A stretch of DNA of 64,000 bases, taken from the NCBI GenBank assembly GCA_031291955.1, contig JARLIA010000005.1:74034-138033 (forward strand), read 5' to 3'. Positions within the stretch are counted from its first letter, which is position 1. Each line of letters starts with the position of its first letter. A program made the position numbers and the translations under genes. This stretch comes from Minisyncoccota bacterium. GTDB taxonomy: Bacteria; Patescibacteriota; Minisyncoccia; Moranbacterales; UBA2206. The notes below the pieces were generated by a model. The model was given only the letters and a program-made list of their open reading frames with translations, had not been told where the DNA came from and did not search any database. Shown piece by piece: positions 7,868 to 62,190 of this stretch.

Positions 7868-9259
7868 TTATTTAGAGGTTTTTTTGTCCCGGTTGTAGAC
7901 GTCTTCATAGCGGATAATGTCATCTTCGCCCAGGTAGCTTCCGGTTTGGACTTCGATGATTTCCAGATTTATTTTGCCGGGGTTGCTGAGGCGATGTTTG
8001 TTGCCCATCGGAATAAAAGTACTTTCGTTTTCATGGAGGGTGATTTCTTTTTCACCGTTGACGATTTGGGCCGTCCCATAGACCACGATCCAGTGTTCGG
8101 CCCGGTGATTGTGGGACTGCAGGCTCAATTTGGCGCCGGGGTAAACCGTGATTTTTTTCACCTGGTGCTGCGAGCCGGCGATCAAGACTTCATATTTCCC
8201 CCAGGGGCGGTGGACGATGATGTTATGCTCCAGTTCCGGCATCTTGTTTTCCTTGAGATAATCAACTATCTTTTTGACGTCCTGGCCGCAGCCTTTCCGG
8301 TGGACCAGGATGCTGTCGGTGTTTTCCACAATAACCAAGTCTTTCACGCCAACGGTGGCAATCAGTTTGTTGCCGGCCGAAAGGGCGTAGATGTTGTCGG
8401 AATCGACGGCGACAGTGCGGGTGCGGTTGTCTTTGCCTTGGATCTCGCTCAAGTTTTCGAACGAGCCGATGTCGCTCCAACCGAAGTTGCCTTCAAAAAC
8501 GACCATGGTTGTAGATTTTTCACTGATAGCGTAGTCGATGGAAGTGGACGGAAGGTTAGAAAAATTTTTAAGCAGTTCAGAGAGACTTCCTGCGGCAATT
8601 TTGGAAATTTCCGGCGCGTGAAGAGCCAGTTCCCGCCAGAAGGCGGCCGGTGTAAAGAGATACATCCCGCCGTTCCAGACGTAAGCGCCCGAGGCTAAAT
8701 ATTTTTCGGCCGTTTCCTTATCTGGTTTTTCGGAAAAACCGGAAACAGTGGAATAGGCACCCTTGTCTTGGTCTTTTTTAATGTAACCGTAGCCGGTTTC
8801 CGGTCGGGTGGGCGTGATGCCGATGGTGCCGATGTTGGCGCCGACGTTTTCAAAGGCGTTTTTTAGGACGGCTAGATATTTCTCCCGATCGCCGATGTAG
8901 TGGTCGGAAGGCAAAAATGCGATCGGTTCGTTTTTCCCGACGCCGAATTTTTCTTCCATATATTTAACAGCGAGCGTGATAGCCGGCGCGGTATTGAGGC
9001 TTTCTGGTTCCACGATGATTTGCGTTTCGTTGAAATCTCCGTTTTCCATTTCCTTGATCTGGTTGGCCACATTGAAAAAACTTTCGTAATTAGTGATGAA
9101 AAAAATGTGGTCGGCCGGCATGAGAGCCCGCATCCGGGAGTATGTTTCCTGGATGAGTGAACGATCGCTGAAAAGGTCGAGGAATTGCTTGGGGAAATTT
9201 TTTCGGGAAAGCGGCCAGAGGCGCGAGCCCGATCCGCCGCAAAGAATGACGCTATACAT
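7868..9259 (-). CDS. manC: mannose-1-phosphate guanylyltransferase / mannose-6-phosphate isomerase (bifunctional type)
   Basis: N-terminal GGSGSRLWPLSR nucleotidyltransferase motif and a C-terminal cupin with HNHRAEHW. Confidence 0.9.
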   Translation of the reverse strand: MYSVILCGGSGSRLWPLSRKNFPKQFLDLFSDRSLIQETYSRMRALMPADHIFFITNYESFFNVANQIKEMENGDFNETQIIVEPESLNTAPAITLAVKYMEEKFGVGKNEPIAFLPSDHYIGDREKYLAVLKNAFENVGANIGTIGITPTRPETGYGYIKKDQDKGAYSTVSGFSEKPDKETAEKYLASGAYVWNGGMYLFTPAAFWRELALHAPEISKIAAGSLSELLKNFSNLPSTSIDYAISEKSTTMVVFEGNFGWSDIGSFENLSEIQGKDNRTRTVAVDSDNIYALSAGNKLIATVGVKDLVIVENTDSILVHRKGCGQDVKKIVDYLKENKMPELEHNIIVHRPWGKYEVLIAGSQHQVKKITVYPGAKLSLQSHNHRAEHWIVVYGTAQIVNGEKEITLHENESTFIPMGNKHRLSNPGKINLEIIEVQTGSYLGEDDIIRYEDVYNRDKKTSK

Positions 9260-17457: not shown

Positions 17458-17506
17458 GATTTAATTATAGCACAAGTCGTGGAACGCAAAACACGAAAGC
17501 GAAAAC

Positions 17507-17534
17507 TTGACGAGGATGGCGGTAGTGTTATAAT
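17507..17534 (+). promoter_or_regulatory. sigma-70-type promoter (TTGACG, 16-nt spacer, TGT-TATAAT extended -10)
   Basis: Direct reading. Positioned to drive the 17554 ORF and uvrB. Confidence 0.65.
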
Positions 17535-17553
17535 AACATGCGATTTTAATCTT

Positions 17554-17838
17554 ATGGAATTCCATAACATTAAAAACGAAGCCGGTTCTAATGGTTTTAT
17601 TCTCTCATCTTCGCGCTGGATAAAAAAGAATCCGAAACTGGCCGGGAATGTTCGCGACTGCGCGGATGTGACGCAATTGGTGTGCTTAGCTAATCTTGAA
17701 AATCTTAACGCCGAATATATCCGCGCCGGATTGCCGCAAAAAGAGCGATTGCTAAACCTGAACCAAAGCGCCATTTCCCAAATGAAATCGTTGGCGGACA
17801 GTCCGGGAATCAGGAAGTTGGAAAACAAAAAATTTTGA
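17554..17838 (+). CDS. hypothetical protein (94 aa), possible HTH near the C-terminus
   Basis: First good ATG after the predicted promoter. The LNLNQSAISQMK segment resembles an XRE-type recognition helix. The track version starts at a GTG inside a repeat (17479). Confidence 0.4.
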   Translation: MEFHNIKNEAGSNGFILSSSRWIKKNPKLAGNVRDCADVTQLVCLANLENLNAEYIRAGLPQKERLLNLNQSAISQMKSLADSPGIRKLENKKF

Positions 17839-17845
17839 CAAGTTT

Positions 17846-20068
17846 ATGGAAAACAAATTCAAAATATCCTCCAAATTCAAGCCCGAAGGCGATCAGCCGC
17901 AGGCGATTGAAAAATTGACCGCGGGGCTTGAGGCTGGAAAAAAGTTCCAGACGCTTTTGGGCGTGACGGGGTCGGGGAAGACTTTTACCATTGCCAACGT
18001 CATTGAAAATATCCAAAAACCGACTTTGGTCATTGCGCCCAACAAGACTTTGGCGGCGCAACTGGCGCAGGAATTTCGGACTTTCTTTCCCAAAAGCGCG
18101 GTGGAATATTTCGTTTCCTATTATGATTATTATCAGCCGGAAGCCTACATCGCTTCCTCCGACACATACATCGAAAAGGAATCCCAGATCAACGACGAGA
18201 TCGACCGGCTTCGCCACGCGGCCACCGCGGCGCTCATGAGTCGCCGCGATGTCATCATTTGCGCTTCGGTGTCGTGTATCTACGGTTTGGGCAGCCCGGA
18301 ATATTATCGGAATATTACGCTGGAATTGGCGGTGGAGGACGGTTATTCGCAGGTTCGGGCGTCCACGCCCGAACCGCATAGTCCTGGTAAAACAAAATTA
18401 TCAGTCAAATCTGAATCGAAAATTTCCGCAGATAATAAAAAATTACCAGAAATGGCAGGTTCAATCGGGACGATTGAACCTGCAAAAAAAAATAATAGGG
18501 ACGAGATTGTAAAAAAATTGATCGACATGCAATATAATCGGAGCGATGTTTTGGCGCGGGGGAAATTCCGGCTGACCGGGAATACTCTGGAAATTATGCC
18601 GCCCGGACGGGAAATTGTAACGAGGATTGAAATGGAAGGGGGCAGTATTAAAAAAATATTCGAGTACGATTTTCTTACCGGCGAGGAACTGGGAAAGCTG
18701 GAAAAAGCGGTCATCTATCCAGCCAAACATTTCGTGGTGCCCGAACCGGTGATGGAAGGCGCTTTGGAAAAAATTCAAAAAGAAATGGAAGAGCAAGTGG
18801 AATTTTTCAAGCGTCAGGGAAAGATTCTGGAAGCGGAAAGGATTTCCCGTCGGACGCGCCAGGACATTGAAATGATGAGGGAAATCGGCTACTGCAATGG
18901 AATTGAAAACTATTCCCGCTTTCTCACTGAACGCCAGCCCGGTGAACCCCCCTACACTTTGATCGATTATTTTCCCGACGATTTTCTCATGGTGATTGAC
19001 GAATCGCATGTGACCGTGCCGCAACTCAACGGAATGTATAACGGCGACCACGCCCGGAAAGTCTCACTGATCGACAACGGCTTCCGCCTGCCTTCGGCTT
19101 TTGATAACCGCCCGCTTAAATTTCCGGAGTTCGAGAAAAAAATAAACCAGCTGATTTTCACGTCGGCGACACCGGCAAAATATGAAATGGAAAAATCAAA
19201 AATAGACCCCCTCTCCCGTAATCGGGAGAGGGTTGGGGAGAGGGCAACGCGGAACTCGGCGCCCTCTCTGTCGCGAGTACGCGACATCTCTCCCGAGTAC
19301 GGGGGAGAGGGAAATATTGTGGAACAAATTATTAGGCCGACCGGACTGATTGATCCAGAGCTGGAAATCAAGCCGACCAGAGGACAGGTGAAAGATGTGA
19401 CGGAGGAGATCAAAAAAATAATCGCCCGGAAGGAGCGGGTGCTTATCACCACGCTGACTAAAAAAATGGCCGAAGACTTGTCGGATTTCTTGAAAGAGAG
19501 CGAAGTGAAAGCTGAATATCTCCATTCCGGCGTGGACACTTTGGACCGGGTGCGGATTTTGGAACAATTGCGCCGGGGAAAATTTGATGTTCTGGTCGGA
19601 GTAAATTTGCTGCGGGAAGGGCTCGATCTTCCCGAAGTTTCTTTGGTGGCGATTCTCGACGCGGACAAAGAAGGATTTTTGCGGAGCGAAACGTCGCTCA
19701 TCCAAACCATCGGCCGCGCCGCGCGGAATGTCAAAGGAAAAGTTATTCTCTACGCCGACACCATTACCGGTTCGATGAAACGAGCTATCGACGAGACAAA
19801 CCGTCGCCGGGCAATCCAGACGGAATATAACAAAAAACATCGTATCACTCCAAAAACCATCAAGAAGAAAATCCAGTCGATCGTCGACCATGAAATCAAA
19901 CCTCAGGTGACGCGCGACTTTTCCCAATTGGAATCATTGGAGGATATGGCCGGCTACATTAAACAACGCGAGCGCGAAATGAAAGACGCGGCCCGGAATT
20001 TGGAATTTGAAAAAGCGGCGATCATCCGGGACGAGATAAGTGAGTTGAGGAAGCTGCAGATAAAATAG
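17846..20068 (+). CDS. uvrB: excinuclease ABC subunit B (740 aa, with two in-frame insertions)
   Basis: Walker A GVTGSGKT, helicase motifs, EQIIRPTGL, and C-terminal UVR domain EFEKAAIIRDEISELRKL. Confidence 0.95.
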   Translation: MENKFKISSKFKPEGDQPQAIEKLTAGLEAGKKFQTLLGVTGSGKTFTIANVIENIQKPTLVIAPNKTLAAQLAQEFRTFFPKSAVEYFVSYYDYYQPEAYIASSDTYIEKESQINDEIDRLRHAATAALMSRRDVIICASVSCIYGLGSPEYYRNITLELAVEDGYSQVRASTPEPHSPGKTKLSVKSESKISADNKKLPEMAGSIGTIEPAKKNNRDEIVKKLIDMQYNRSDVLARGKFRLTGNTLEIMPPGREIVTRIEMEGGSIKKIFEYDFLTGEELGKLEKAVIYPAKHFVVPEPVMEGALEKIQKEMEEQVEFFKRQGKILEAERISRRTRQDIEMMREIGYCNGIENYSRFLTERQPGEPPYTLIDYFPDDFLMVIDESHVTVPQLNGMYNGDHARKVSLIDNGFRLPSAFDNRPLKFPEFEKKINQLIFTSATPAKYEMEKSKIDPLSRNRERVGERATRNSAPSLSRVRDISPEYGGEGNIVEQIIRPTGLIDPELEIKPTRGQVKDVTEEIKKIIARKERVLITTLTKKMAEDLSDFLKESEVKAEYLHSGVDTLDRVRILEQLRRGKFDVLVGVNLLREGLDLPEVSLVAILDADKEGFLRSETSLIQTIGRAARNVKGKVILYADTITGSMKRAIDETNRRRAIQTEYNKKHRITPKTIKKKIQSIVDHEIKPQVTRDFSQLESLEDMAGYIKQREREMKDAARNLEFEKAAIIRDEISELRKLQIK
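18352..18483 (+). repeat. in-frame palindromic module 1 inside uvrB
   Basis: GGTTCGGGCG-TCCA-CGCCCGAACC (18352-18375) and GCAGGTTCAATCG-GGA-CGATTGAACCTGC (18455-18483) flank an A-rich word region. Confidence 0.85.
19209..19309 (+). repeat. in-frame palindromic module 2 inside uvrB (four consecutive hairpins)
   Basis: CCCTCTCCCG-TAAT-CGGGAGAGGG; GAGAGGGC-N15-GCCCTCTC; GTCGCG-AGTA-CGCGAC; CTCTCCCG-AGTA-CGGGGGAGAG. Confidence 0.85.
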
Positions 20069-20294: not shown

Positions 20295-20615
20295 TTAGGA
20301 TAGGAAGATGGTTCTTTCAAAACTTGGTGCGTTTCAATTCTTAAATTAAACTTAGCTGTCTCACTAAAGACAATATGTATGGATGTTATTTTTAGCGAGG
20401 CAGTTAAGTTCTCAATATAAATTTTGCTCGCAGGAGCCACTTGAGCGAAGCACTCGTGGCATTTATCCGAAAGGATTTATACCATGCGCTCGGGAAAGGC
20501 CACTTCTGGGAAGCACTCGCGGCGGAAATCTCACCGTGCCCTAAAGGAGAGAAAAATTTATCTCTGCCAAGCCTCCGGGAAAGAAAGACATGTCTTTCTT
20601 TCCCATCCTCATTTT
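20295..20615 (+). ncRNA. candidate structured RNA or long leader (about 320 nt), class unknown
   Basis: Delimited by the 20260 promoter and the perfect 14-bp palindrome GGGAAAGAAAGACA/TGTCTTTCTTTCCC (20577-20604) plus a T tract. Contains two related 25-nt hairpin units (20436-20460, 20499-20523). No convincing ORF. Confidence 0.35.
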
Positions 20616-22241: not shown

Positions 22242-22919
22242 ATGCAAAACACACAATCGCTTACCGGAAAGCAAAAGAACCTGCTCGAAACGATCCGGGA
22301 ATATGTTGACCAGCGAAATGAAAATCCGACCAGTTATCGCCTGCATAAATACTTGGAAGCGCAGGGCGTGAGAGACAGTTTGAAGTCTGTCATGCAAGTC
22401 ATTGAAGCTTTGGAGAAAAAAGATCTGGTGAAACGTGACGGCGACAAGCGGCTCTATCTCATTGAGAACGGCAATTATGCCAATCTGAAAAACATTTTTT
22501 CCGTGCCGGTCTATGGCTTGGCCTCTTGCGGCGAAGCCTTGGCCTACGCCGAGGACAACGTGGATGGGTTTTTGCAAATCTCCAAAGCCTTGTTTCGCGG
22601 GGCCGACTCGGCCAAACTTTTCGCCGTCAAAACTTTGGGTGATTCGATGGACAAAGATGGCATAAACGATGGCGATTACGTTATCTTTGAAAAATACGAA
22701 TACGACAAAGGAGAGGAGCTGGAAGGGAAAATCGTGGTGGCGGTCATCAATGGAATGGCGACGATCAAGAGATATAAAAAAGTGAGCGACGAAATCATCG
22801 GTCTTTTCCCGCGCTCGAAAAACACCGTCCACCAGCCGATCTTCATCCATTCTTCCGACTCGATCCTGGTCGCCGGGATTTTCCGGAAAGTGCTGCCGGT
22901 GAAATACGTAAGTTTGTAG
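22242..22919 (+). CDS. lexA: LexA-like repressor (wHTH plus S24 peptidase domain)
   Basis: GDSMDKDGINDGDYVIF (Ser nucleophile) and ATIKRY (Lys). Putative cleavage region VYGLASCGEALAY. Confidence 0.88.
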   Translation: MQNTQSLTGKQKNLLETIREYVDQRNENPTSYRLHKYLEAQGVRDSLKSVMQVIEALEKKDLVKRDGDKRLYLIENGNYANLKNIFSVPVYGLASCGEALAYAEDNVDGFLQISKALFRGADSAKLFAVKTLGDSMDKDGINDGDYVIFEKYEYDKGEELEGKIVVAVINGMATIKRYKKVSDEIIGLFPRSKNTVHQPIFIHSSDSILVAGIFRKVLPVKYVSL

Positions 22920-23014
22920 GCTTGCTTAAAATATTTTTCCGTACTACCCTGTATTAGATAAAAGTAAATACTAAGTACCCGATCTGGGGAAATTTTTGGC
23001 GTTGGGAAATTTTT

Positions 23015-26000
23015 ATGGACAAAATCATCATAAAAGGCGCGCGGGAGCATAATTTGAAGAACGTCGACTTGGAGCTGCCGCGGAATAAATTTATCGTTTT
23101 TACGGGAATTTCTGGGTCAGGGAAGTCGACCATGGCTTTTGATACTATTTTTGCCGAGGGGCAACGGCGCTATCTCGAAAGTCTTTCCAGTTACGCTCGG
23201 CAGTTTTTGGGGCAAATGAATAAGCCTGACGTGGACTATATTGAAGGTCTGTCGCCGGCCATTTCCATCGACCAGAAAGCGGCGTCCCACAATCCGCGTT
23301 CGACGGTTGGAACGGTGACGGAAATCCACGATTATTTGCGATTGCTATATGCCAAGATCGGCCGGCCACATTGTCCGATCTGCTCCCGGGAAATTACGAA
23401 GTTGTCGACAGATGAGATTGTTGATCGGATTTTGGAGATGTGCGCCGCGAAACCTCATCCGCCCCGGAGTACTGGGGCACCTTCTCCTTATAAAGGAGAA
23501 GGAGATAATGGAAGGGGCTGTTCTATCGAAATTCTATCGCCGGTGGTTCGCCAGCGGAAAGGGGAATATTCGACGATGCTGGCTGAGATGTTCCGGCGGG
23601 GGTTTTCCCGCGCTTACGTCAATGGGGAAAAATACGAACTGTCGGCCAAGATCGGAGACGAGTTGGAATTGGCCCGCTACAAAAAACATAATATTGATAT
23701 CGTGGTAGATGAGGTGGAGATATCTAGCGACAACATTTCGCGAATATTTGAAGGAGTGGAAAAGGCGCTGAAGTTGTCGGACGGACTGGTCAAGATAAGA
23801 TCCGAAATCCGAAATACGAAATCCGAAACAATGTCAAAATCAAAAATTAAAAATTCAAAACAAAACAATACGGAAATTGTTTTCAACCAAAAACTTTCTT
23901 GTCCGATCCATGAGATTGAGTTTCCGGAGTTGGAGCCGCGTTTGTTTTCTTTCAACAGTCCGTTTGGCGCTTGTCCGGCTTGCGAAGGATTGGGAACGAA
24001 AAAAGAAATCGACCCGGCGCTGGTGGCGCCGGATAAAAACAAAACGATTGCTGAGGGTGGCATCTTCCCTTGGAGCTACAAACGGAATAACTGGCAAGGG
24101 TCGGTTCTCCGGGCGGTTTGCAATCATTTCCACATCAAAGACAATGTGCGCCTCCGTGACCTTTCGGAAGATGACCTCAACATCTTAATGTTCGGCGGAC
24201 CGGATGCGACCGATATGATAGATAAGGAAGAAGCGGAAGAAATACCCGTCACTTTGAAATCAAAAACCGGTTCAAGCTGGAAATATTACATGACCTGGCG
24301 CGGAGCGGTCGGATATCTTCAAGATCGATATTTCAAGACCGATTCGGATGCGGTGCGGGCGGATATTGAAAAATATATGTCGCAAAATCCGTGTTCGGTC
24401 TGTCACGGCGCGCGTTACAAAAAAGAAGTCTTGCTGGTGACGGTCGGCGAATCCCGCCCGCAACGCTTCGCTAACGCAAGTGTTAGCTTGCGTAGCGATG
24501 CGGGCGGGAAAAATATTGTCGAAGTCTCAAATGTGTCTGTGGCTGAGACGCTTAAATTTTTCGAAAGACTGGAATTGAATAAAAATGAGCAGATCATCGC
24601 CGGGAGAATTTTGAAGGAAATTATTAATCGCCTAGGCTTTTTGGAAAACGTGGGACTGGGATATTTGACTTTGGCCAGATCCGCGGCGACACTAGCCGGC
24701 GGGGAAGCGCAACGGATCCGCTTGGCATCGCAAATCGGTTCGGGTCTCACCGGCGTTTTGTATATTTTGGACGAACCGTCGGTCGGTCTTCACTCGCGCG
24801 ACAACACTAAATTGCTCGAGACGCTTTTTCATCTGCGCGATCTGGGAAACACGCTAATCGTGGTTGAGCACGATGAAGAGACGATGCGGGAGGCCGACTA
24901 TTTGGTTGACATCGGACCGGGAGCGGGAAAATTGGGAGGTAAAATTGTGGCGCATGGCACGCCGGTAGAAGTTATTCGCGATAAAAAATCTTTAACCGCG
25001 GCATATTTGCGGGGTGACGCGAAAATAGAAATGCCGAAATTCCGCCGGCCAGTCAAGAATAAAAAAACGATTGTTGTCCGCGGCGCGCGCGAACACAATT
25101 TGAAAAACATTACCGTCGAGTTTCCTTTAAAAGTTTTGACGTGTGTGACGGGCGTGTCCGGCTCGGGGAAATCCACATTGGTAGAGGACATCCTTTATAA
25201 AGCCTTGGCGTCAAAAATCATGCGGACGCTCGACCGGCCGGGGAAACATTCGGAGATTGTCGGCACGCAATATGTTAACAAAGTGATCATGATCGACCAG
25301 TCGCCGATCGGTCGGACGCCGCGCTCCAATCCGGCGACTTATACCGGGCTCTTTACGCCGATCCGGGAATTATTTTCCCAGACCCGGGACGCCAAATCCA
25401 AGGGTTATGGTCCGGGGCGCTTTTCGTTCAACATCCGGGGCGGACGCTGTGACAACTGCCAAGGCGACGGCCAGCTTAAAATTGAGATGCAGTTCATGCC
25501 GGATGTCTATTTGCCTTGCGATGTCTGTCACGGAAAAAGATACAACAGTGAGACCTTGAAAGTGAAATACAAGGACAAAAACATTTCCGAAGTTTTGGAC
25601 ATGACGGTCAGCGAAGGGCGCGAGTTTTTTGAGAATTTTCCGGCTATTCACGACAAGCTGGCGGTTTTGGAAGACGTCGGCTTGGGCTATATCCAACTCG
25701 GGCAGTCCGCCACCACACTTTCCGGCGGGGAAGCGCAAAGGATAAAACTGGCCACGGAACTGGCAAGGAGGGCGACCGGCGACACTTTGTATATTCTGGA
25801 CGAACCGACGACTGGCCTCCATTTTGACGACATTAAAAAACTTTTGAATGTTTTGAACCGCTTGGTCGATGCCGGCAACACAGTGGTGGTGATCGAACAC
25901 AATTTGGACGTCGTCAAAACCGCCGATTGGATCATTGACTTGGGTCCGGAAGGCGGAGAAGGCGGCGGAAAAATTATCGTTACCGGTCCGCCGGAAGAAG

Positions 26001-26062
26001 TGGCGAAATATCATAAGGAAAGCTGGACGGGAAAGTATCTGAGAGATGTATTGAAAAAGTAG
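23015..26062 (+). CDS. uvrA: excinuclease ABC subunit A (1015 aa, with several in-frame insertions)
   Basis: Two ABC ATPase modules ([18 protein letters not shown]), LSGGEAQR signatures and zinc modules CxxC. Confidence 0.95.
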   Translation: MDKIIIKGAREHNLKNVDLELPRNKFIVFTGISGSGKSTMAFDTIFAEGQRRYLESLSSYARQFLGQMNKPDVDYIEGLSPAISIDQKAASHNPRSTVGTVTEIHDYLRLLYAKIGRPHCPICSREITKLSTDEIVDRILEMCAAKPHPPRSTGAPSPYKGEGDNGRGCSIEILSPVVRQRKGEYSTMLAEMFRRGFSRAYVNGEKYELSAKIGDELELARYKKHNIDIVVDEVEISSDNISRIFEGVEKALKLSDGLVKIRSEIRNTKSETMSKSKIKNSKQNNTEIVFNQKLSCPIHEIEFPELEPRLFSFNSPFGACPACEGLGTKKEIDPALVAPDKNKTIAEGGIFPWSYKRNNWQGSVLRAVCNHFHIKDNVRLRDLSEDDLNILMFGGPDATDMIDKEEAEEIPVTLKSKTGSSWKYYMTWRGAVGYLQDRYFKTDSDAVRADIEKYMSQNPCSVCHGARYKKEVLLVTVGESRPQRFANASVSLRSDAGGKNIVEVSNVSVAETLKFFERLELNKNEQIIAGRILKEIINRLGFLENVGLGYLTLARSAATLAGGEAQRIRLASQIGSGLTGVLYILDEPSVGLHSRDNTKLLETLFHLRDLGNTLIVVEHDEETMREADYLVDIGPGAGKLGGKIVAHGTPVEVIRDKKSLTAAYLRGDAKIEMPKFRRPVKNKKTIVVRGAREHNLKNITVEFPLKVLTCVTGVSGSGKSTLVEDILYKALASKIMRTLDRPGKHSEIVGTQYVNKVIMIDQSPIGRTPRSNPATYTGLFTPIRELFSQTRDAKSKGYGPGRFSFNIRGGRCDNCQGDGQLKIEMQFMPDVYLPCDVCHGKRYNSETLKVKYKDKNISEVLDMTVSEGREFFENFPAIHDKLAVLEDVGLGYIQLGQSATTLSGGEAQRIKLATELARRATGDTLYILDEPTTGLHFDDIKKLLNVLNRLVDAGNTVVVIEHNLDVVKTADWIIDLGPEGGEGGGKIIVTGPPEEVAKYHKESWTGKYLRDVLKK
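23461..23502 (+). repeat. in-frame double hairpin inside uvrA
   Basis: GCCCCGG-AGTA-CTGGGGC (23461-23478) and CCTTCTCCTT-ATA-AAGGAGAAGG (23480-23502). Confidence 0.85.
24452..24509 (+). repeat. in-frame 58-nt long hairpin inside uvrA
   Basis: Outer stem TCCCGCCCGC/GCGGGCGGGA (10 bp). Inner stem GCTA(A)CGCAAG/CTTGCGTAGC. Confidence 0.85.
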
Positions 26063-26067
26063 AAATT

Positions 26068-27327
26068 ATGACGACCATCCTCCAAAAGCTGAAAAACCTG
26101 CCTCAATCACCGGGGGTGTATATTTTCTATGATAAAAATAGAAATATTTTGTACGTGGGAAAAGCGACGTCGCTTAAAGATAGGGTTGGTTCGTATTTTC
26201 AGAATAAGATTGGGGCGGTGCGGACGATTGAGATGTATATGAATGAAGTGACGGATCTGGAGATCAAGAAAACCGACACGGTTTTGGAAGCGTATATTTT
26301 GGAACAATCTTTGATCAAAAAACTTCAGCCGAAATATAACGCGATGGGGAAAGACGATAAGTCATTTACGTACGTACTTCTTTCTAAGGAAGAATTTCCG
26401 AGATTCGCGGTGGTACGGGAAACTGATTTGGATAGTGTAAAATCATCGCCCCGTGGGGGGCAAAAATCTTTGCCCCCCACGGCGAAGGTTTATGGTCCGT
26501 ATACGTCGAAACGGCAAATTGAGGCGGCCTTGAAAATCTTACGGAAAATTTTTCCCTATCACAACCGGCCGGAACATTCGGAGTCCCGGTGTTTTGATTA
26601 TCATCTTGGGCTTTGCCCCGGACCGTATGACGGGAAGATTTCCAAAAAAGAATACGTCAAAAATATCCGGGCGATAAAAATGATCTTGGAAGGGAAGAAG
26701 AAAGGACTTATAAACCGGATGAAAAAAGAGATGGAAGAATGTTCAGACAAGGCTGAATTTGAAAAGGCGGCGGAGGTGCGGAACAGGATTTTTGCGTTGC
26801 AACACATCCAGGACGTGGCGCTGATATCTGATCATAGAGACGCAATTAATCGCGTCTCTGTGGACGACGCAATGATGCGCATCGAAGGTTATGATATTTC
26901 CAATATTTCCGGGAAATTTGCGACTGGTTCGATGGTGGTGTTTGATAATTCAGACGGTGAAATGCAGCCGAATAAATCGCAATATCGTAAATTCAAAATC
27001 AAAAATGTTGAAGGCGCCAATGACGTGGGGGCAATGGAAGAAATGCTTACCAGGAGATTTCGGAACAATTGGCCGCGGCCGAATTTGATTTTGCTCGACG
27101 GCGGAGCCGGGCATTTGAATATGGCGCGGAAAGTCCTGCGGAATCACAAAATAGAAATTCCCTTGCTGGCGGTGGCCAAAGGGCCGGCGCGGAAAAAACT
27201 GGATCTGCGAAGTTTCGGGACCGTGCCGGAACTGCCAAAAAATATCATCGAACAAGTGAGAAACGAAGCGCATCGCTTCGCGATCAGTTATCATAGGAAA
27301 TTGAGAGGTAAATCGTTCACGGATTAA
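26068..27327 (+). CDS. uvrC: excinuclease ABC subunit C, compact form (419 aa)
   Basis: GIY-YIG (GVYIFYDKNRNILYVGKA), UVR domain (AEFEKAAEVRNRIFALQ), endonuclease domain (RIEGYDISN...EAHRFAISYHR). Ends right after that motif. Confidence 0.9.
   Translation: MTTILQKLKNLPQSPGVYIFYDKNRNILYVGKATSLKDRVGSYFQNKIGAVRTIEMYMNEVTDLEIKKTDTVLEAYILEQSLIKKLQPKYNAMGKDDKSFTYVLLSKEEFPRFAVVRETDLDSVKSSPRGGQKSLPPTAKVYGPYTSKRQIEAALKILRKIFPYHNRPEHSESRCFDYHLGLCPGPYDGKISKKEYVKNIRAIKMILEGKKKGLINRMKKEMEECSDKAEFEKAAEVRNRIFALQHIQDVALISDHRDAINRVSVDDAMMRIEGYDISNISGKFATGSMVVFDNSDGEMQPNKSQYRKFKIKNVEGANDVGAMEEMLTRRFRNNWPRPNLILLDGGAGHLNMARKVLRNHKIEIPLLAVAKGPARKKLDLRSFGTVPELPKNIIEQVRNEAHRFAISYHRKLRGKSFTD
26447..26484 (+). repeat. 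in-frame hairpin inside uvrC
   Basis: CCGTGGGGGGCAAA-AATC-TTTGCCCCCCACGG, a perfect 14-bp stem (26451-26482). Confidence 0.9.
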
Positions 27328-27407
27328 GCCTTGAAGTGGCCAATGCTTTGACATCTCTTGCCAAATCCTCTACAATACATCTCTAGTAAGCAATCTTCTT
27401 TCAAACT

Positions 27408-30221
27408 ATGCCCACTCAAAAATCTTCTCCTAAAAATACTTTCTCACTGAAGGATAAAATCGTCATCCGTGGCGCGCGGGTGAATAATTTGAAGAACATC
27501 GACGTGGACATTCCGCGGGATAAATTGGTCGTAGTGACAGGTCTTTCCGGGTCGGGGAAATCTTCTTTGGCTTTTGACGTGGTCTACGCCGAAGGCAATC
27601 GGCGGTATCTGGAAGGCATGTCGAGCTACGCCCGGCAGTTTTTGGATGTTTCGGCTAAACCGGACGTGGACAAAATAGAGAATTTGAGCCCGACCATCTC
27701 AATTGATCAAAAAAGCTTGAGTCGTTCACCTCGCTCGACGGTCGGGACGCTCACGGAAATTTACGATTATTTGCGAGTGCTCTACGCCAAAGTGGGAACG
27801 CCCTATTGTCCTCATTGTCTCTTGCCGATGGGGCGCAAAAAGAACCAGGAAATTTTGGAGGAAATTTTGGTTTTGCCGGAAAATACCCAAGTGGCGGTCC
27901 TGGCTCGGATAAAAAATGAAGGTCAGAGTGTTAAGGATATTCTCAAAAACATCAGTCAGCTTGGTTATGCCCGGGCGCGGGTTGGCGGTAAAATCGTCTT
28001 GATTGCCGACGCCTTGCTTTTTCCGGAAGAAAACTTGAGCGGCAACGTCGAAATCGTGGTTGACCGGATCAATCTCAAGAAAAAAAATCCCGATCACGAA
28101 CGGATGTTGGATTCTATTGAGACTGCTTTTAAATTGGGGAAAGGTTTTATGGCGGTCGCAATCGATAATGGTGAGAGCCGGATTTATAATCAAAATTTTG
28201 TTTGCAGCAACTGCTATTTCAAAATTTCGGAAATCACGCCCAAGAATTTTTCTTTCAACAGTCCCGAAGGCGCCTGCGAACATTGCGCGGGAATGGGTAC
28301 TATCCAGGAAGTGGACGAGGATCTGATCATTCCTAACAGAAATCTCACTTTGGCCGAAGGAGCTATTATGCCGCTCGCCAAGTCCGGCGGCCGGGCTGGG
28401 TATCTCGATACTCTCACCAAGATCGGCGAGAAAGCGGGTTTTTCCGTGAATGAACCGGCGCGGAACATTTCCAAGGAAAATTTGAAAGTTATTTTTCATG
28501 GTTTTGGTGTGCCTGGTACTCCTGGTTATTTTGAGGGAGTGGTGCCGATGATTCGAAAAAAATATACCGAAGCGGCCACTCAGACGGCCCGGACCGACAT
28601 CGAAAAATATATGCTGGAAAAAGATTGTCCCGAGTGTGGAGGCAAGCGTTTGAAAAAAGAATATTTATCCGTCTTGATGAGCGGGAAATCGATCGACGAT
28701 TTGGTCCGGATGGATATCGATACTCTCATTTTATTTTTAGAAAATTTACGGACTGCCGATTTGAGTGCCGCCAAAGCGGAAATCGTGGCGCCATTGGCAA
28801 AAGAAATGATCGCCAAAGCCAAGGCGCTCAAGAACGTCGGCTTGGAATATCTGTCACTTTCCCGCCGGGCCGATTCCATTTCCGGCGGCGAAGGTCAGCG
28901 CATCCGGCTCGCAACTCAAATTGGATCGGAACTTTCCGGTATTATCTATGTTCTGGACGAACCGTCTATCGGTCTCCATTCCCGAGACAATGAAAAGTTG
29001 ATCGACACGATGGAAAAGCTGAAAGAGAACGGCAATTCTCTGATCGTGGTCGAGCATGACAAAGACATTATCGAGTGCGCCGATTGGGTGATCGACATGG
29101 GTCCCGGGGCAGGGGAGTTCGGCGGGGAAGTTATCTTTTCCGGTTCGGTGAAAAAAATGGAGAGCGTCGCGACATCCACTGCCAAGTTCCTTTCCGGCCG
29201 GGAAAAAGTAACGGTTAAGAAGAAACCGCGAACGGCATCGAAGAACTTTTTGGAAATCCTGGGTGCCGCAGAACACAATTTGAAAAATATCGACGTCCGG
29301 ATTCCACTCGGCCGTTTTGTTGCCGTCTCGGGCGTGTCCGGTTCGGGGAAATCCACTTTGGTAACCGACATTCTGGCTCGAGAGCTGGCCCGGCATTTTT
29401 GGAAGGCTAAGAAAAATCCCGGAAAGCATGATAAAATCACTGGTCTTAACCGCTTGGATAAAGTGATTAATATCGATCAATCGCCGATCGGCCGGACGCC
29501 GCGTTCCAATGCCGCCACCTACACCGGTGTCTTTTCACTTATTCGGGAACTTTTCTCCGCCACCGAAGAGGCGAAAAAACGGGGCTACGATGCCAGTCGC
29601 TTCAGTTTTAATGTCCGGGGCGGCCGTTGCGAAGATTGCCAAGGCGACGGAACAAAAAAGATCGAGATGCATCTTTTGCCGGATATGTATGTCAAATGCG
29701 AAACTTGCCAGGGAACGCGCTATAACGCCAAGACGCTTGATATTGAATATCAGGGTGCTACCGTCGCCCAGGTGCTGGATATGAGTGTTTCCTACGCGCT
29801 TCGCTTTTTCCATAAATCGCCGCTTATCGCGGCTAAACTGAAAACGCTGGAAGAAGTCGGCCTGGGCTACATCAAACTGGGACAGAGCGCCACAAATCTT
29901 TCCGGCGGAGAAGCGCAGCGGATAAAATTGGCTACCGAGCTCGCCCGGAAATCGACCGGCAAGACTTTGTATATTTTAGATGAACCGACCATCGGGTTGC
30001 ACTTTGAAGATGTGCGGAAATTGCTTCAGGTGCTGGACGCGCTGGTCGAAAAAGGCAACACTGTTCTTGTGGTGGAACATAATTTGGACGTCATCAAGAA
30101 CGCCGACTGGGTGATTGATCTCGGGCCGGAAGGCGGAAACGGGGGCGGCGAAATTGTTTACGCCGGCGAACCGAAGGGGCTGAAGAAAGCGAAGAGGAGT
30201 TGGACAGGAAAATATCTGTAA
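27408..30221 (+). CDS. uvrA: excinuclease ABC subunit A, second paralog (937 aa, no obvious insertions)
   Basis: Same domain order as 23015..26062: [23 protein letters not shown] signatures and zinc modules. Confidence 0.93.
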
Positions 30222-62057: not shown

Positions 62058-62143
62058 GAATTTCCGCCGCCGGAATATTTCGGGAAATGGTTCTTCTTTT
62101 GGGCGGCGGCCATCGCGCATTATCTGGATGGCTGACTGCAGCT

Positions 62144-62190
62144 AAGTCCGGGCGAGGAATTTCCTCTGCCCGGACTTGTTTTATTTTTTG
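62144..62190 (+). terminator. rho-independent terminator
   Basis: AAGTCCGGGC...GCCCGGACTT 10-bp stem with an inner GAGG/CCTC stem, followed by a T tract. Confidence 0.7.

Follow-up and report, generated by a model that had tools for sequence, protein, structure and literature searches.

Why does the uvrB gene of a bacterium of the Minisyncoccota (order Moranbacterales) carry, within an intact reading frame, perfect palindromes and about 50 codons that solved UvrB structures lack? The gene lies in a 64,000-nt window, by which we mean the whole stretch of DNA analyzed (GenBank assembly GCA_031291955.1, contig JARLIA010000005.1, positions 74,034 to 138,033 of the forward strand), and positions below count from its first letter. 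An earlier description of this DNA, made from the letters and their translations (the sequence-only reading), had reported two perfect hairpins inside uvrB on either side of a filler tract. Both hairpins are real and lie where they were placed, but they are the two ends of a single element with terminal inverted repeats (Table 1). We consider it likely, with a probability of roughly 0.85, that positions 18349-18483 are a dispersed palindromic element that inserted in frame in uvrB. It behaves like a MITE (miniature inverted-repeat transposable element) or a Rickettsia palindromic element, as a small, non-coding dispersed repeat of Parcubacteria-like and Moranbacteria-like bacteria.

Architecture of the element and its place in UvrB

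Hairpin A reads GGTTCGGGCGT-CC-ACGCCCGAACC (18352-18375) and has a perfect stem of 11 bp, which can also be read, as it first was, as a 10-bp stem with the loop TCCA. Hairpin B, GCAGGTTCAATCG-GGA-CGATTGAACCTGC (18455-18483), has the 13-bp perfect stem reported for it. The two hairpins have GCAGGTTC...GAACC(T)GC in common and differ by a compensated inner triplet, GGG/CCC in A versus AAT/ATT in B. As related copies in inverted orientation, they constitute terminal inverted repeats. These repeats, GCAGGTTCnnnCGTCC at both ends, each make up half of a terminal hairpin, and the ends 18343-18364 and 18468-18489 are reverse complements at 77% over 22 nt (repeat I2). The middle part, described as an A-rich tract of low complexity, holds a third stem, CTGGTAA/TTACCAG, that is conserved across the family described below. 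The element proper comprises 45 codons, fewer than the 50 or so first estimated. Its point of entry follows the second base of a codon (TC/G...GC/A, with slashes at the borders), and the uvrB frame runs through it without a stop.

Folded as RNA (+ strand), the 135-nt segment reaches z = -8.05, and folded as DNA (- strand) it reaches z = -8.57; 0/200 shuffled sequences folded as well. Across the window, 18 perfect hairpins with a stem of at least 9 bp were observed versus 0-3 in block shuffles; most of the 18 are intergenic and terminator-like, with A-rich and T-rich arms. With up to 3 mismatches allowed, neither hairpin of the element has another occurrence in the window, and 0 matches were found in shuffled sequence.

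The uvrB product is matched by UvrB structures in the PDB (E = 1.7e-249) and contains the Pfam domains ResIII, UvrB_inter, Helicase_C, UvrB and UVR. Solved structures match its residues 2-163 and resume at residue ~217, leaving residues ~164-216 unmatched, and this alignment places the insertion site between residues 163 and 168 of B. caldotenax UvrB. A second gap in the alignment lies between B. caldotenax residues 403 and 405. The insert ends where UvrB_inter, the UvrA-interaction domain (domain 2), begins at residue 211; without the element, the protein would read ...ELAVEDGYS/KKNNRDEIV.... In an AlphaFold2 model built with 57 relatives, which is mediocre overall with a mean predicted local distance difference test score (pLDDT) of 64, residues 167-214 have pLDDT < 50 and are mostly coil, and the same holds for residues 455-488, which belong to a second insert. 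Ser, Thr, Pro and Lys are abundant in the inserted peptide, which probably forms a disordered surface loop of UvrB. As far as the model predicts, a position at a domain boundary and in a disordered region is compatible with the UvrB fold.

The solved structures align across the site, and none of the closest UvrBs carries the element: peptides derived from the hairpins were found in 0/120 of these proteins, which are 69-84% identical. It is also absent from 80 UvrBs from other, diverse genomes that match over ~1,910-2,090 nt (~640-700 codons). These came from a contig scan with the whole UvrB that matched universally conserved motifs and returned distant UvrBs only (49-54% identity), and they served as a no-insert control. 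The closest proteins in the database bear names of Parcubacteria, Moranbacteria and Patescibacteria, and the organism is placed among these accordingly. The hairpins are not confined to one assembly, since the Logan assembly of run SRR23300978 contains an identical 2,739-bp contig (0 mismatches) that encodes the same 740-aa protein.

Copies of the element at other loci

A low-stringency blastn search of the loci of five close relatives returned a second copy at L083:7590-7726, upstream of the uvrB of a 79%-identical relative. Common to it and the window copy are an identical hairpin of 26 nt, the word GCATAGTyCTGGTAA next to that hairpin, and another hairpin, which in L083 has the inner triplet AGG/CCT. 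Scanning metagenome contigs for the AAT-type hairpin gave 28 loci, and 13 distinct further full-length copies of 94-139 nt follow the same plan as the window copy, on Parcubacteria-like or Moranbacteria-like contigs; weaker related matches were found in addition. The plan consists of a left hairpin, GCAGGTTCAATCG-TCy-CGATTGAAyC, followed by ...TTCTGGnAA, a variable AT-rich core, TTnCCAGAAA... and a right hairpin, GGTTCrGGCG-loop-CGCCyGAACCTGC; read this way, the window copy is on the minus strand. The proposal of the sequence-only reading that a small palindromic element had inserted with the frame intact is supported by the presence of the same element at unrelated loci and its absence from UvrB orthologues.

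The structure is conserved along with the plan. In the 14 aligned copies, 96.8% of the pair cells are paired, versus 22-45% when the partners are slid. Five pairs have changed on both sides, and in the right hairpin an A-U pair has become G-C in 5 copies. Each family hairpin found has an inner triplet (AAT, AGG or GGG) that complements its partner, and 14/14 copies retain the termini GCA/TGC and GCAGGTTC/GAACCTGC. The stem of hairpin B is identical to that of the left hairpin of all full-length copies, an identity that the scan pattern required. A covariance model, R1, was built from the alignment of the 14 copies (A1). It gave the window copy 128.7 bits on the - strand, compared with 90.9 bits on the + strand; the other full-length copies scored 92-134 bits, a range that takes in the - strand score of the window copy. 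R1 also detected further, more diverged copies in L105, L108, L088 and L098; two copies per contig are present in L105, L108 and Ga0208977_1000244. The window copy and the 13 others are all small and without coding capacity of their own, and at 94-139 nt they are within the size of MITEs (< ~300 bp).

Nine full-length copies are not read through, having no frame, or only a short one, open across them, and 7/9 are closed by stops in all six frames. The nine measure 94, 94, 94, 136, 137, 137, 137, 138 and 139 nt. Besides uvrB, read-through copies occur in five further places (Table 1), each stop-free in the frame used; inside long open reading frames (ORFs), the lengths are 135 (window uvrB), 138, 138, 123 and 87 nt. 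In three hosts, namely UvrB, the MiaB-MiaA fusion and the membrane protein, the orientation and frame in which the element is read coincide, giving QV[RQ]ASTPEP...GSI[EG]TIEPA, with SQVRASTPEPHSPGK...GSIGTIEPA in the window UvrB, KQVRASTPEPRVSGK...GSIETIEPA in L108 and QQVQASTPEPRVSGK...GSIETIEPA in L105. The first L108 copy lies between the Pfam domains UPF0004 and Radical_SAM of MiaB, and neither L108 copy is present in the 60 closest MiaBs. Taken together, the read-through copies use both orientations and three frames. G.U cells number 14 and A.C or C.A cells, which are G.U on the other strand, number 9; this is no clear excess and is in itself uninformative on RNA versus DNA. Read in both orientations and three frames, and with no clear excess of G.U, the element fits one acting at the DNA level better than a strand-specific RNA.

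Table 1 Parts of the element in the window uvrB gene, and copies read through at other loci.
Feature	Position or locus	Strand	Description	Evidence
uvrB, host gene	17846..20068	+	740 aa, intact, all UvrB domains	ORF list, PDB and Pfam matches
Whole element	18349..18483	- (family consensus orientation)	135 nt, 45 codons, UvrB residues 168-213	R1 covariance model; alignment A1 with 13 other copies
Terminal hairpin A, 'right-end' type	18349..18377	+	Inner triplet GGG/CCC; encodes (S)QVRASTPEP	Type shared with right end of L091, L093, L107, L108
Left terminal inverted repeat GCAGGTTCGGGCGTCC	18349..18364	.	16 nt; pairs with 18468-18483	Inverted repeat I2
Central stem, 5' arm CTGGTAA	18384..18390	+	Family-wide TTCTGG/CCAGAA stem	Fold; 91.7% paired over 14 copies
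AT-rich variable core	18391..18442	+	Inner inverted repeat TTATCAG/CAGATAA; no stop in uvrB frame	Length and sequence vary among copies
Central stem, 3' arm TTACCAG	18443..18449	+	Pairs with 18384-18390	Fold
Terminal hairpin B, 'left-end' type	18455..18483	+	Inner triplet AAT/ATT; encodes AGSIGTIEPA	26-nt identical match L083:7588-7613
Right terminal inverted repeat GGACGATTGAACCTGC	18468..18483	.		Inverted repeat I2, alignment
Read-through copy	L108		123 nt; MiaB-MiaA fusion	
Read-through copy, second	L108		87 nt; MiaB-MiaA fusion	
Read-through copy	L105		138 nt; membrane protein	
Read-through copy	L093		138 nt; Wzy/O-antigen-ligase-like protein	
Read-through copy	L094		~110 nt; HypF-like protein	

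Two further observations concern the family. In L088, L090, L098, L111 and others, the AAT-type hairpin pairs with a different second hairpin (CTGGTTCAATCTGCAAGATTGAACCAGC) in elements of ~60-117 nt, which appear to form a sister family, perhaps one of other lineages. In L083:7540-8258, a 47-nt copy of the 5' end of uvrB (4 mismatches) is followed directly by the family element, then by a GC-rich hairpin and a 105-aa ORF on the opposite strand without a Pfam match, before the real uvrB start at 8259. The arrangement has the look of an insertion of 670 bp in the start of uvrB, by which the gene's 5' end was carried in or regenerated.

Recurrent palindromic inserts in UvrB, and features of neighboring genes

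The position of the element in UvrB (site 1) is variable in length among relatives, with at least 5 extra residues in 44/120 of the closest UvrBs, and extra residues are found at the second gap (site 2) in 55/120. We read the DNA of five relatives, and every insert at these sites folds into long, near-perfect hairpins; in L082, a 24-bp stem makes up all 54 nt of the insert. These inserts fall into several unrelated sequence groups and are unrelated to the window element. The second in-frame insert in the window uvrB (~19195-19320, residues ~452-490) is also made up of hairpins, CCCTCTCCCG-TAAT-CGGGAGAGGG and others, and belongs to a different dispersed family. Four copies of this family are in L105 and others in L108, L093, L085 and L091, while L083 carries an orthologous one at the corresponding uvrB site. 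In addition, the word PHPPRSTGAPSPYKGEG of the window uvrA recurs in the uvrB of relatives. The simplest reading of this pattern is that UvrB sites 1 and 2 are permissive loops in which inserts survive; a preference for inserting into existing palindromes would also explain it.

Other features were noted around these genes. Compared with solved UvrA structures, the window uvrA product has three extra segments, AAKPHPPRSTGAPSPYKGEGDNGRG, SEIRNTKSETMSKSKIKNSKQNNTE and GESRPQRFANASVSLRSDAGGKN (23440-23515, 23760-23860 and 24440-24520), and uvrC contains two strong hairpins (26431-26505 and 26831-26880). All perfect hairpins inside the coding sequence of the window (5/5, stem >=9 bp) lie in uvrA, uvrB or uvrC, which together occupy ~6.5 kb of the ~55 kb that are coding. 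Parcubacteria MiaB has another length-variable hot spot in the linker that joins its two N-terminal domains (L108:8958-10400, relatives P0122-P0180), and this linker carries the set of repeat-derived peptides also present in UvrB, among them VIASVAKQSRN...EIATVATLPRNDN and FENWIIENCLKIENWKLKIPA. Two strong intergenic hairpins are unlike ordinary terminators, one after uvrB at 20577-20604 (GGGAAAGAAAGAC-AT-GTCTTTCTTTCCC) and one at 62131-62180 (AAGTCCGGGCGAGGAATTTCCTCTGCCCGGACTT); no other copies of either were found in the fetched loci.

The repair genes themselves are clustered. A LexA-like protein (Peptidase_S24), UvrA and UvrC are encoded at 22242-30221, as is a second UvrA paralogue of 937 aa, all within 10 kb after uvrB, and the order uvrB, lexA, uvrA, uvrC is kept in relatives. 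A conserved motif, ATGrTTTAATTATA, precedes uvrB. In the window, a 119-aa ORF without a Pfam match (17479-17838) lies between this motif and the uvrB start, and in L082 the motif is ~55 nt from uvrB with no such ORF between.

Origin of the insert and its implications

Among known systems, the closest in behavior are the Rickettsia palindromic elements, a likeness proposed by the sequence-only reading that we retain for behavior only, claiming no sequence relationship. As summarized in PMC10969869 (Ogata et al. 2000, 2002), these are palindromic repeats of ~100-150 bp, dispersed in a small genome and found in frame inside unrelated housekeeping genes, where they encode a conserved peptide at positions compatible with the protein fold. 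The present family likewise consists of palindromes of ~100-150 bp that are in frame in UvrB, MiaB-MiaA (two copies), a Wzy-like, a HypF-like and a membrane protein; it encodes a conserved peptide, and its UvrB site is predicted to be compatible with the fold. Unlike the Rickettsia elements, its hosts are Patescibacteria and not Alphaproteobacteria, its terminal inverted repeats are clear and form hairpins in their own right, and most copies sampled have every frame closed and are not read through. We therefore claim an analogy, not membership in the families RPE-1 to RPE-10.

With intragenic bacterial MITEs such as ERIC/RU of enterobacteria (Delihas 2007, PMC2759123) and Correia, BOX and RUP (reviewed in PMC10969869), the family shares small size, the lack of a transposase gene, terminal inverted repeats, a fold as a long imperfect palindrome, multiple copies (here across contigs) and occasional in-frame fusions to host ORFs. 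In contrast to MITEs, it has no known parent insertion sequence and no detectable target-site duplication in the 14 copies, and with the latter it fails one classical MITE criterion. REP/REPIN elements, whose REPs are imperfect palindromes of 20-40 nt and which are mobilized by RAYT (Y1) transposases, resemble it in that two similar short inverted hairpins form a larger palindrome without a target-site duplication. However, the hairpins of the present family begin with GCAGGTTC or GGTTC and have no GTAG-type head, the spacer is long (~40-85 nt) with a stem of its own, and no RAYT gene is present among the window ORFs scanned; REPs are also classically extragenic, unlike the uvrB copy. Elements derived from IS200/IS605 differ from it in having subterminal hairpins of the same orientation at the two ends and a fixed flanking target word of 4-5 nt. 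Since the two loops are reverse complements (TCC vs GGA), the hairpins of the present family are inverted, and together with the missing GTAG head this sets it apart from both IS200/IS605-derived elements and REPs. For Patescibacteria and the candidate phyla radiation, the literature searched yielded no description of elements like these, and on this basis we class the element as a new, previously undescribed repeat family of a known type, in a new host phylum.

Searches for known RNA families and for further matches gave little. Rfam 15 at gathering thresholds found only tRNAs in the window; under permissive settings, the best match over the insert was CRISPR-DR29, whose 20.1 bits fall short of the threshold of 39. 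The resemblance of GCAGGTTCAATC to a tRNA T-arm was treated as a coincidence, and ARAGORN found no tRNA-like gene at the element site. At the protein level, a profile of three insert peptides gave 1 candidate, without a score, in an index of 5.8 billion proteins, and phmmer with the 49-residue insert found nothing at E <= 0.001 among 1.84 billion representatives. Neither hairpin was matched in viral contigs, and plasmids gave no match. The family is visible at the DNA level only.

If the insertion took place as we propose, the element would have arrived by a transposition-like event after the split from the closest sampled relatives (84% identical), and its terminal hairpins would be the likely recognition sites of an enzyme supplied in trans. 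It would then be transcribed and translated with uvrB into a disordered surface loop rich in Ser, Thr, Pro and Lys, and it would have persisted by virtue of a position that tolerates extra residues; inside essential genes, only stop-free, frame-preserving copies would survive.

Several points weigh against this account. The 14 copies show no target-site duplication (flanking direct repeats do not exceed chance, at 2-3 nt), and no conserved target word was found beside them. No transposase Pfam domain or RAYT was found among 40 window ORFs and 5 ORFs of related loci, nor did the fetched loci contain a larger autonomous element with the same ends or a pair of family hairpins 0.7-2.5 kb apart; mobility is thus suggested by the distribution of copies only. 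R1 found no second copy in the 64-kb window, the part of this genome that was covered. Lengths that are multiples of 3 are commoner among read-through copies (Fisher p = 0.011), an argument that is partly circular because such copies are recognized by their open frames, and the read-through copy in L094 measures 110 nt by the boundaries used. A low pLDDT is expected for an insert unique in its alignment, whatever its real structure. Finally, we infer that the insert is translated, and are less confident that it is translated and merely tolerated.

What else might the palindromes be? They could be kept for a function of the RNA or DNA structure, as an mRNA stabilizer, processing site, transcription or translation pause, or protein-binding site that modulates uvrB expression; structural functions of such kinds have reportedly been proposed for REP/BIME and ERIC repeats. 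In keeping with such a role, both hairpins of the uvrB copy have remained perfect, compensatory changes across copies have preserved the stems, and several copies without read-through sit immediately upstream of gene starts. However, recent insertion explains perfect stems equally well, no Rfam family was matched, and neither the G.U cells (14 vs 9 A.C/C.A), without the strand asymmetry of an RNA, nor read-through in both orientations and three frames points to one. We regard a structural role as the reason for retention as very unlikely. It is harder still to see the insert as a home-grown, lineage-specific UvrB loop in which palindromes arose locally, for example by template switching in replication or repair. 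The variation in length at the same two positions in 44/120 and 55/120 UvrBs could be read as local instability, but this explanation is contradicted already by the copies in other contigs; it leaves the same 135-nt architecture, including the 26-nt identical hairpin, at unrelated loci unaccounted for, and other inserts at these positions also come from dispersed families. We give it hardly any weight.

Strong hairpins in coding sequence also have the look of bypass elements, and the insert might be skipped by the ribosome or removed from the mRNA and so be absent from the mature protein. Programmed translational bypassing is exemplified by T4 gene 60. Lang et al. 2014 reportedly described the yeast mitochondrial 'byp' or GC-cluster elements as mobile hairpin-forming inserts in protein genes that interrupt the frame and are bypassed by the ribosome. 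The window element resembles these as a hairpin-forming insert in a coding gene, but its frame is open over exactly 45 codons. Since there is neither a stop nor a break in the frame, bypassing need not be invoked, and the insert was rejected as a programmed bypass element, of which a stop or frame break with matching take-off and landing codons is characteristic. The other read-through copies are likewise stop-free in frame, and no intron-like RNA family was matched at the insert in Rfam; loss of the segment from the protein is therefore highly improbable. An assembly or chimera artefact, for which palindromes can be responsible, is close to negligible, given the identical 2,739-bp contig in a separate assembly, the preserved frame and the same element in many independent metagenomes.

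A dispersed element inserted in frame thus remains our preferred explanation. Beyond it, several unrelated palindromic families without target-site duplications may repeatedly colonize the same loops of housekeeping proteins in Parcubacteria-type bacteria (UvrB sites 1 and 2, the MiaB linker), with a concentration in uvrA, uvrB and uvrC here, through targeting rather than tolerance. We think this unlikely. Insertion into pre-existing hairpins, or into DNA exposed when a LexA-controlled repair cluster is induced, would be possible routes. Were targeting to hold true, the repeats would systematically supply new protein loops across the phylum, or would modulate DNA repair.

In-frame repeat insertions of this kind were first described in Rickettsia, and the known behavior of such elements is unchanged by the present case. 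Parcubacteria have tiny genomes, and their proteins often contain unexplained extra segments; one such segment can now be explained, if our interpretation is correct, as a selfish repeat that is read as protein. The R1 covariance model can flag inserts that would otherwise be taken for lineage-specific domains, and masking the inserts of the family would improve alignments and structure predictions. Moreover, the recurrence of different repeat families at the same loops provides a natural map of insertion tolerance in essential proteins such as UvrB.

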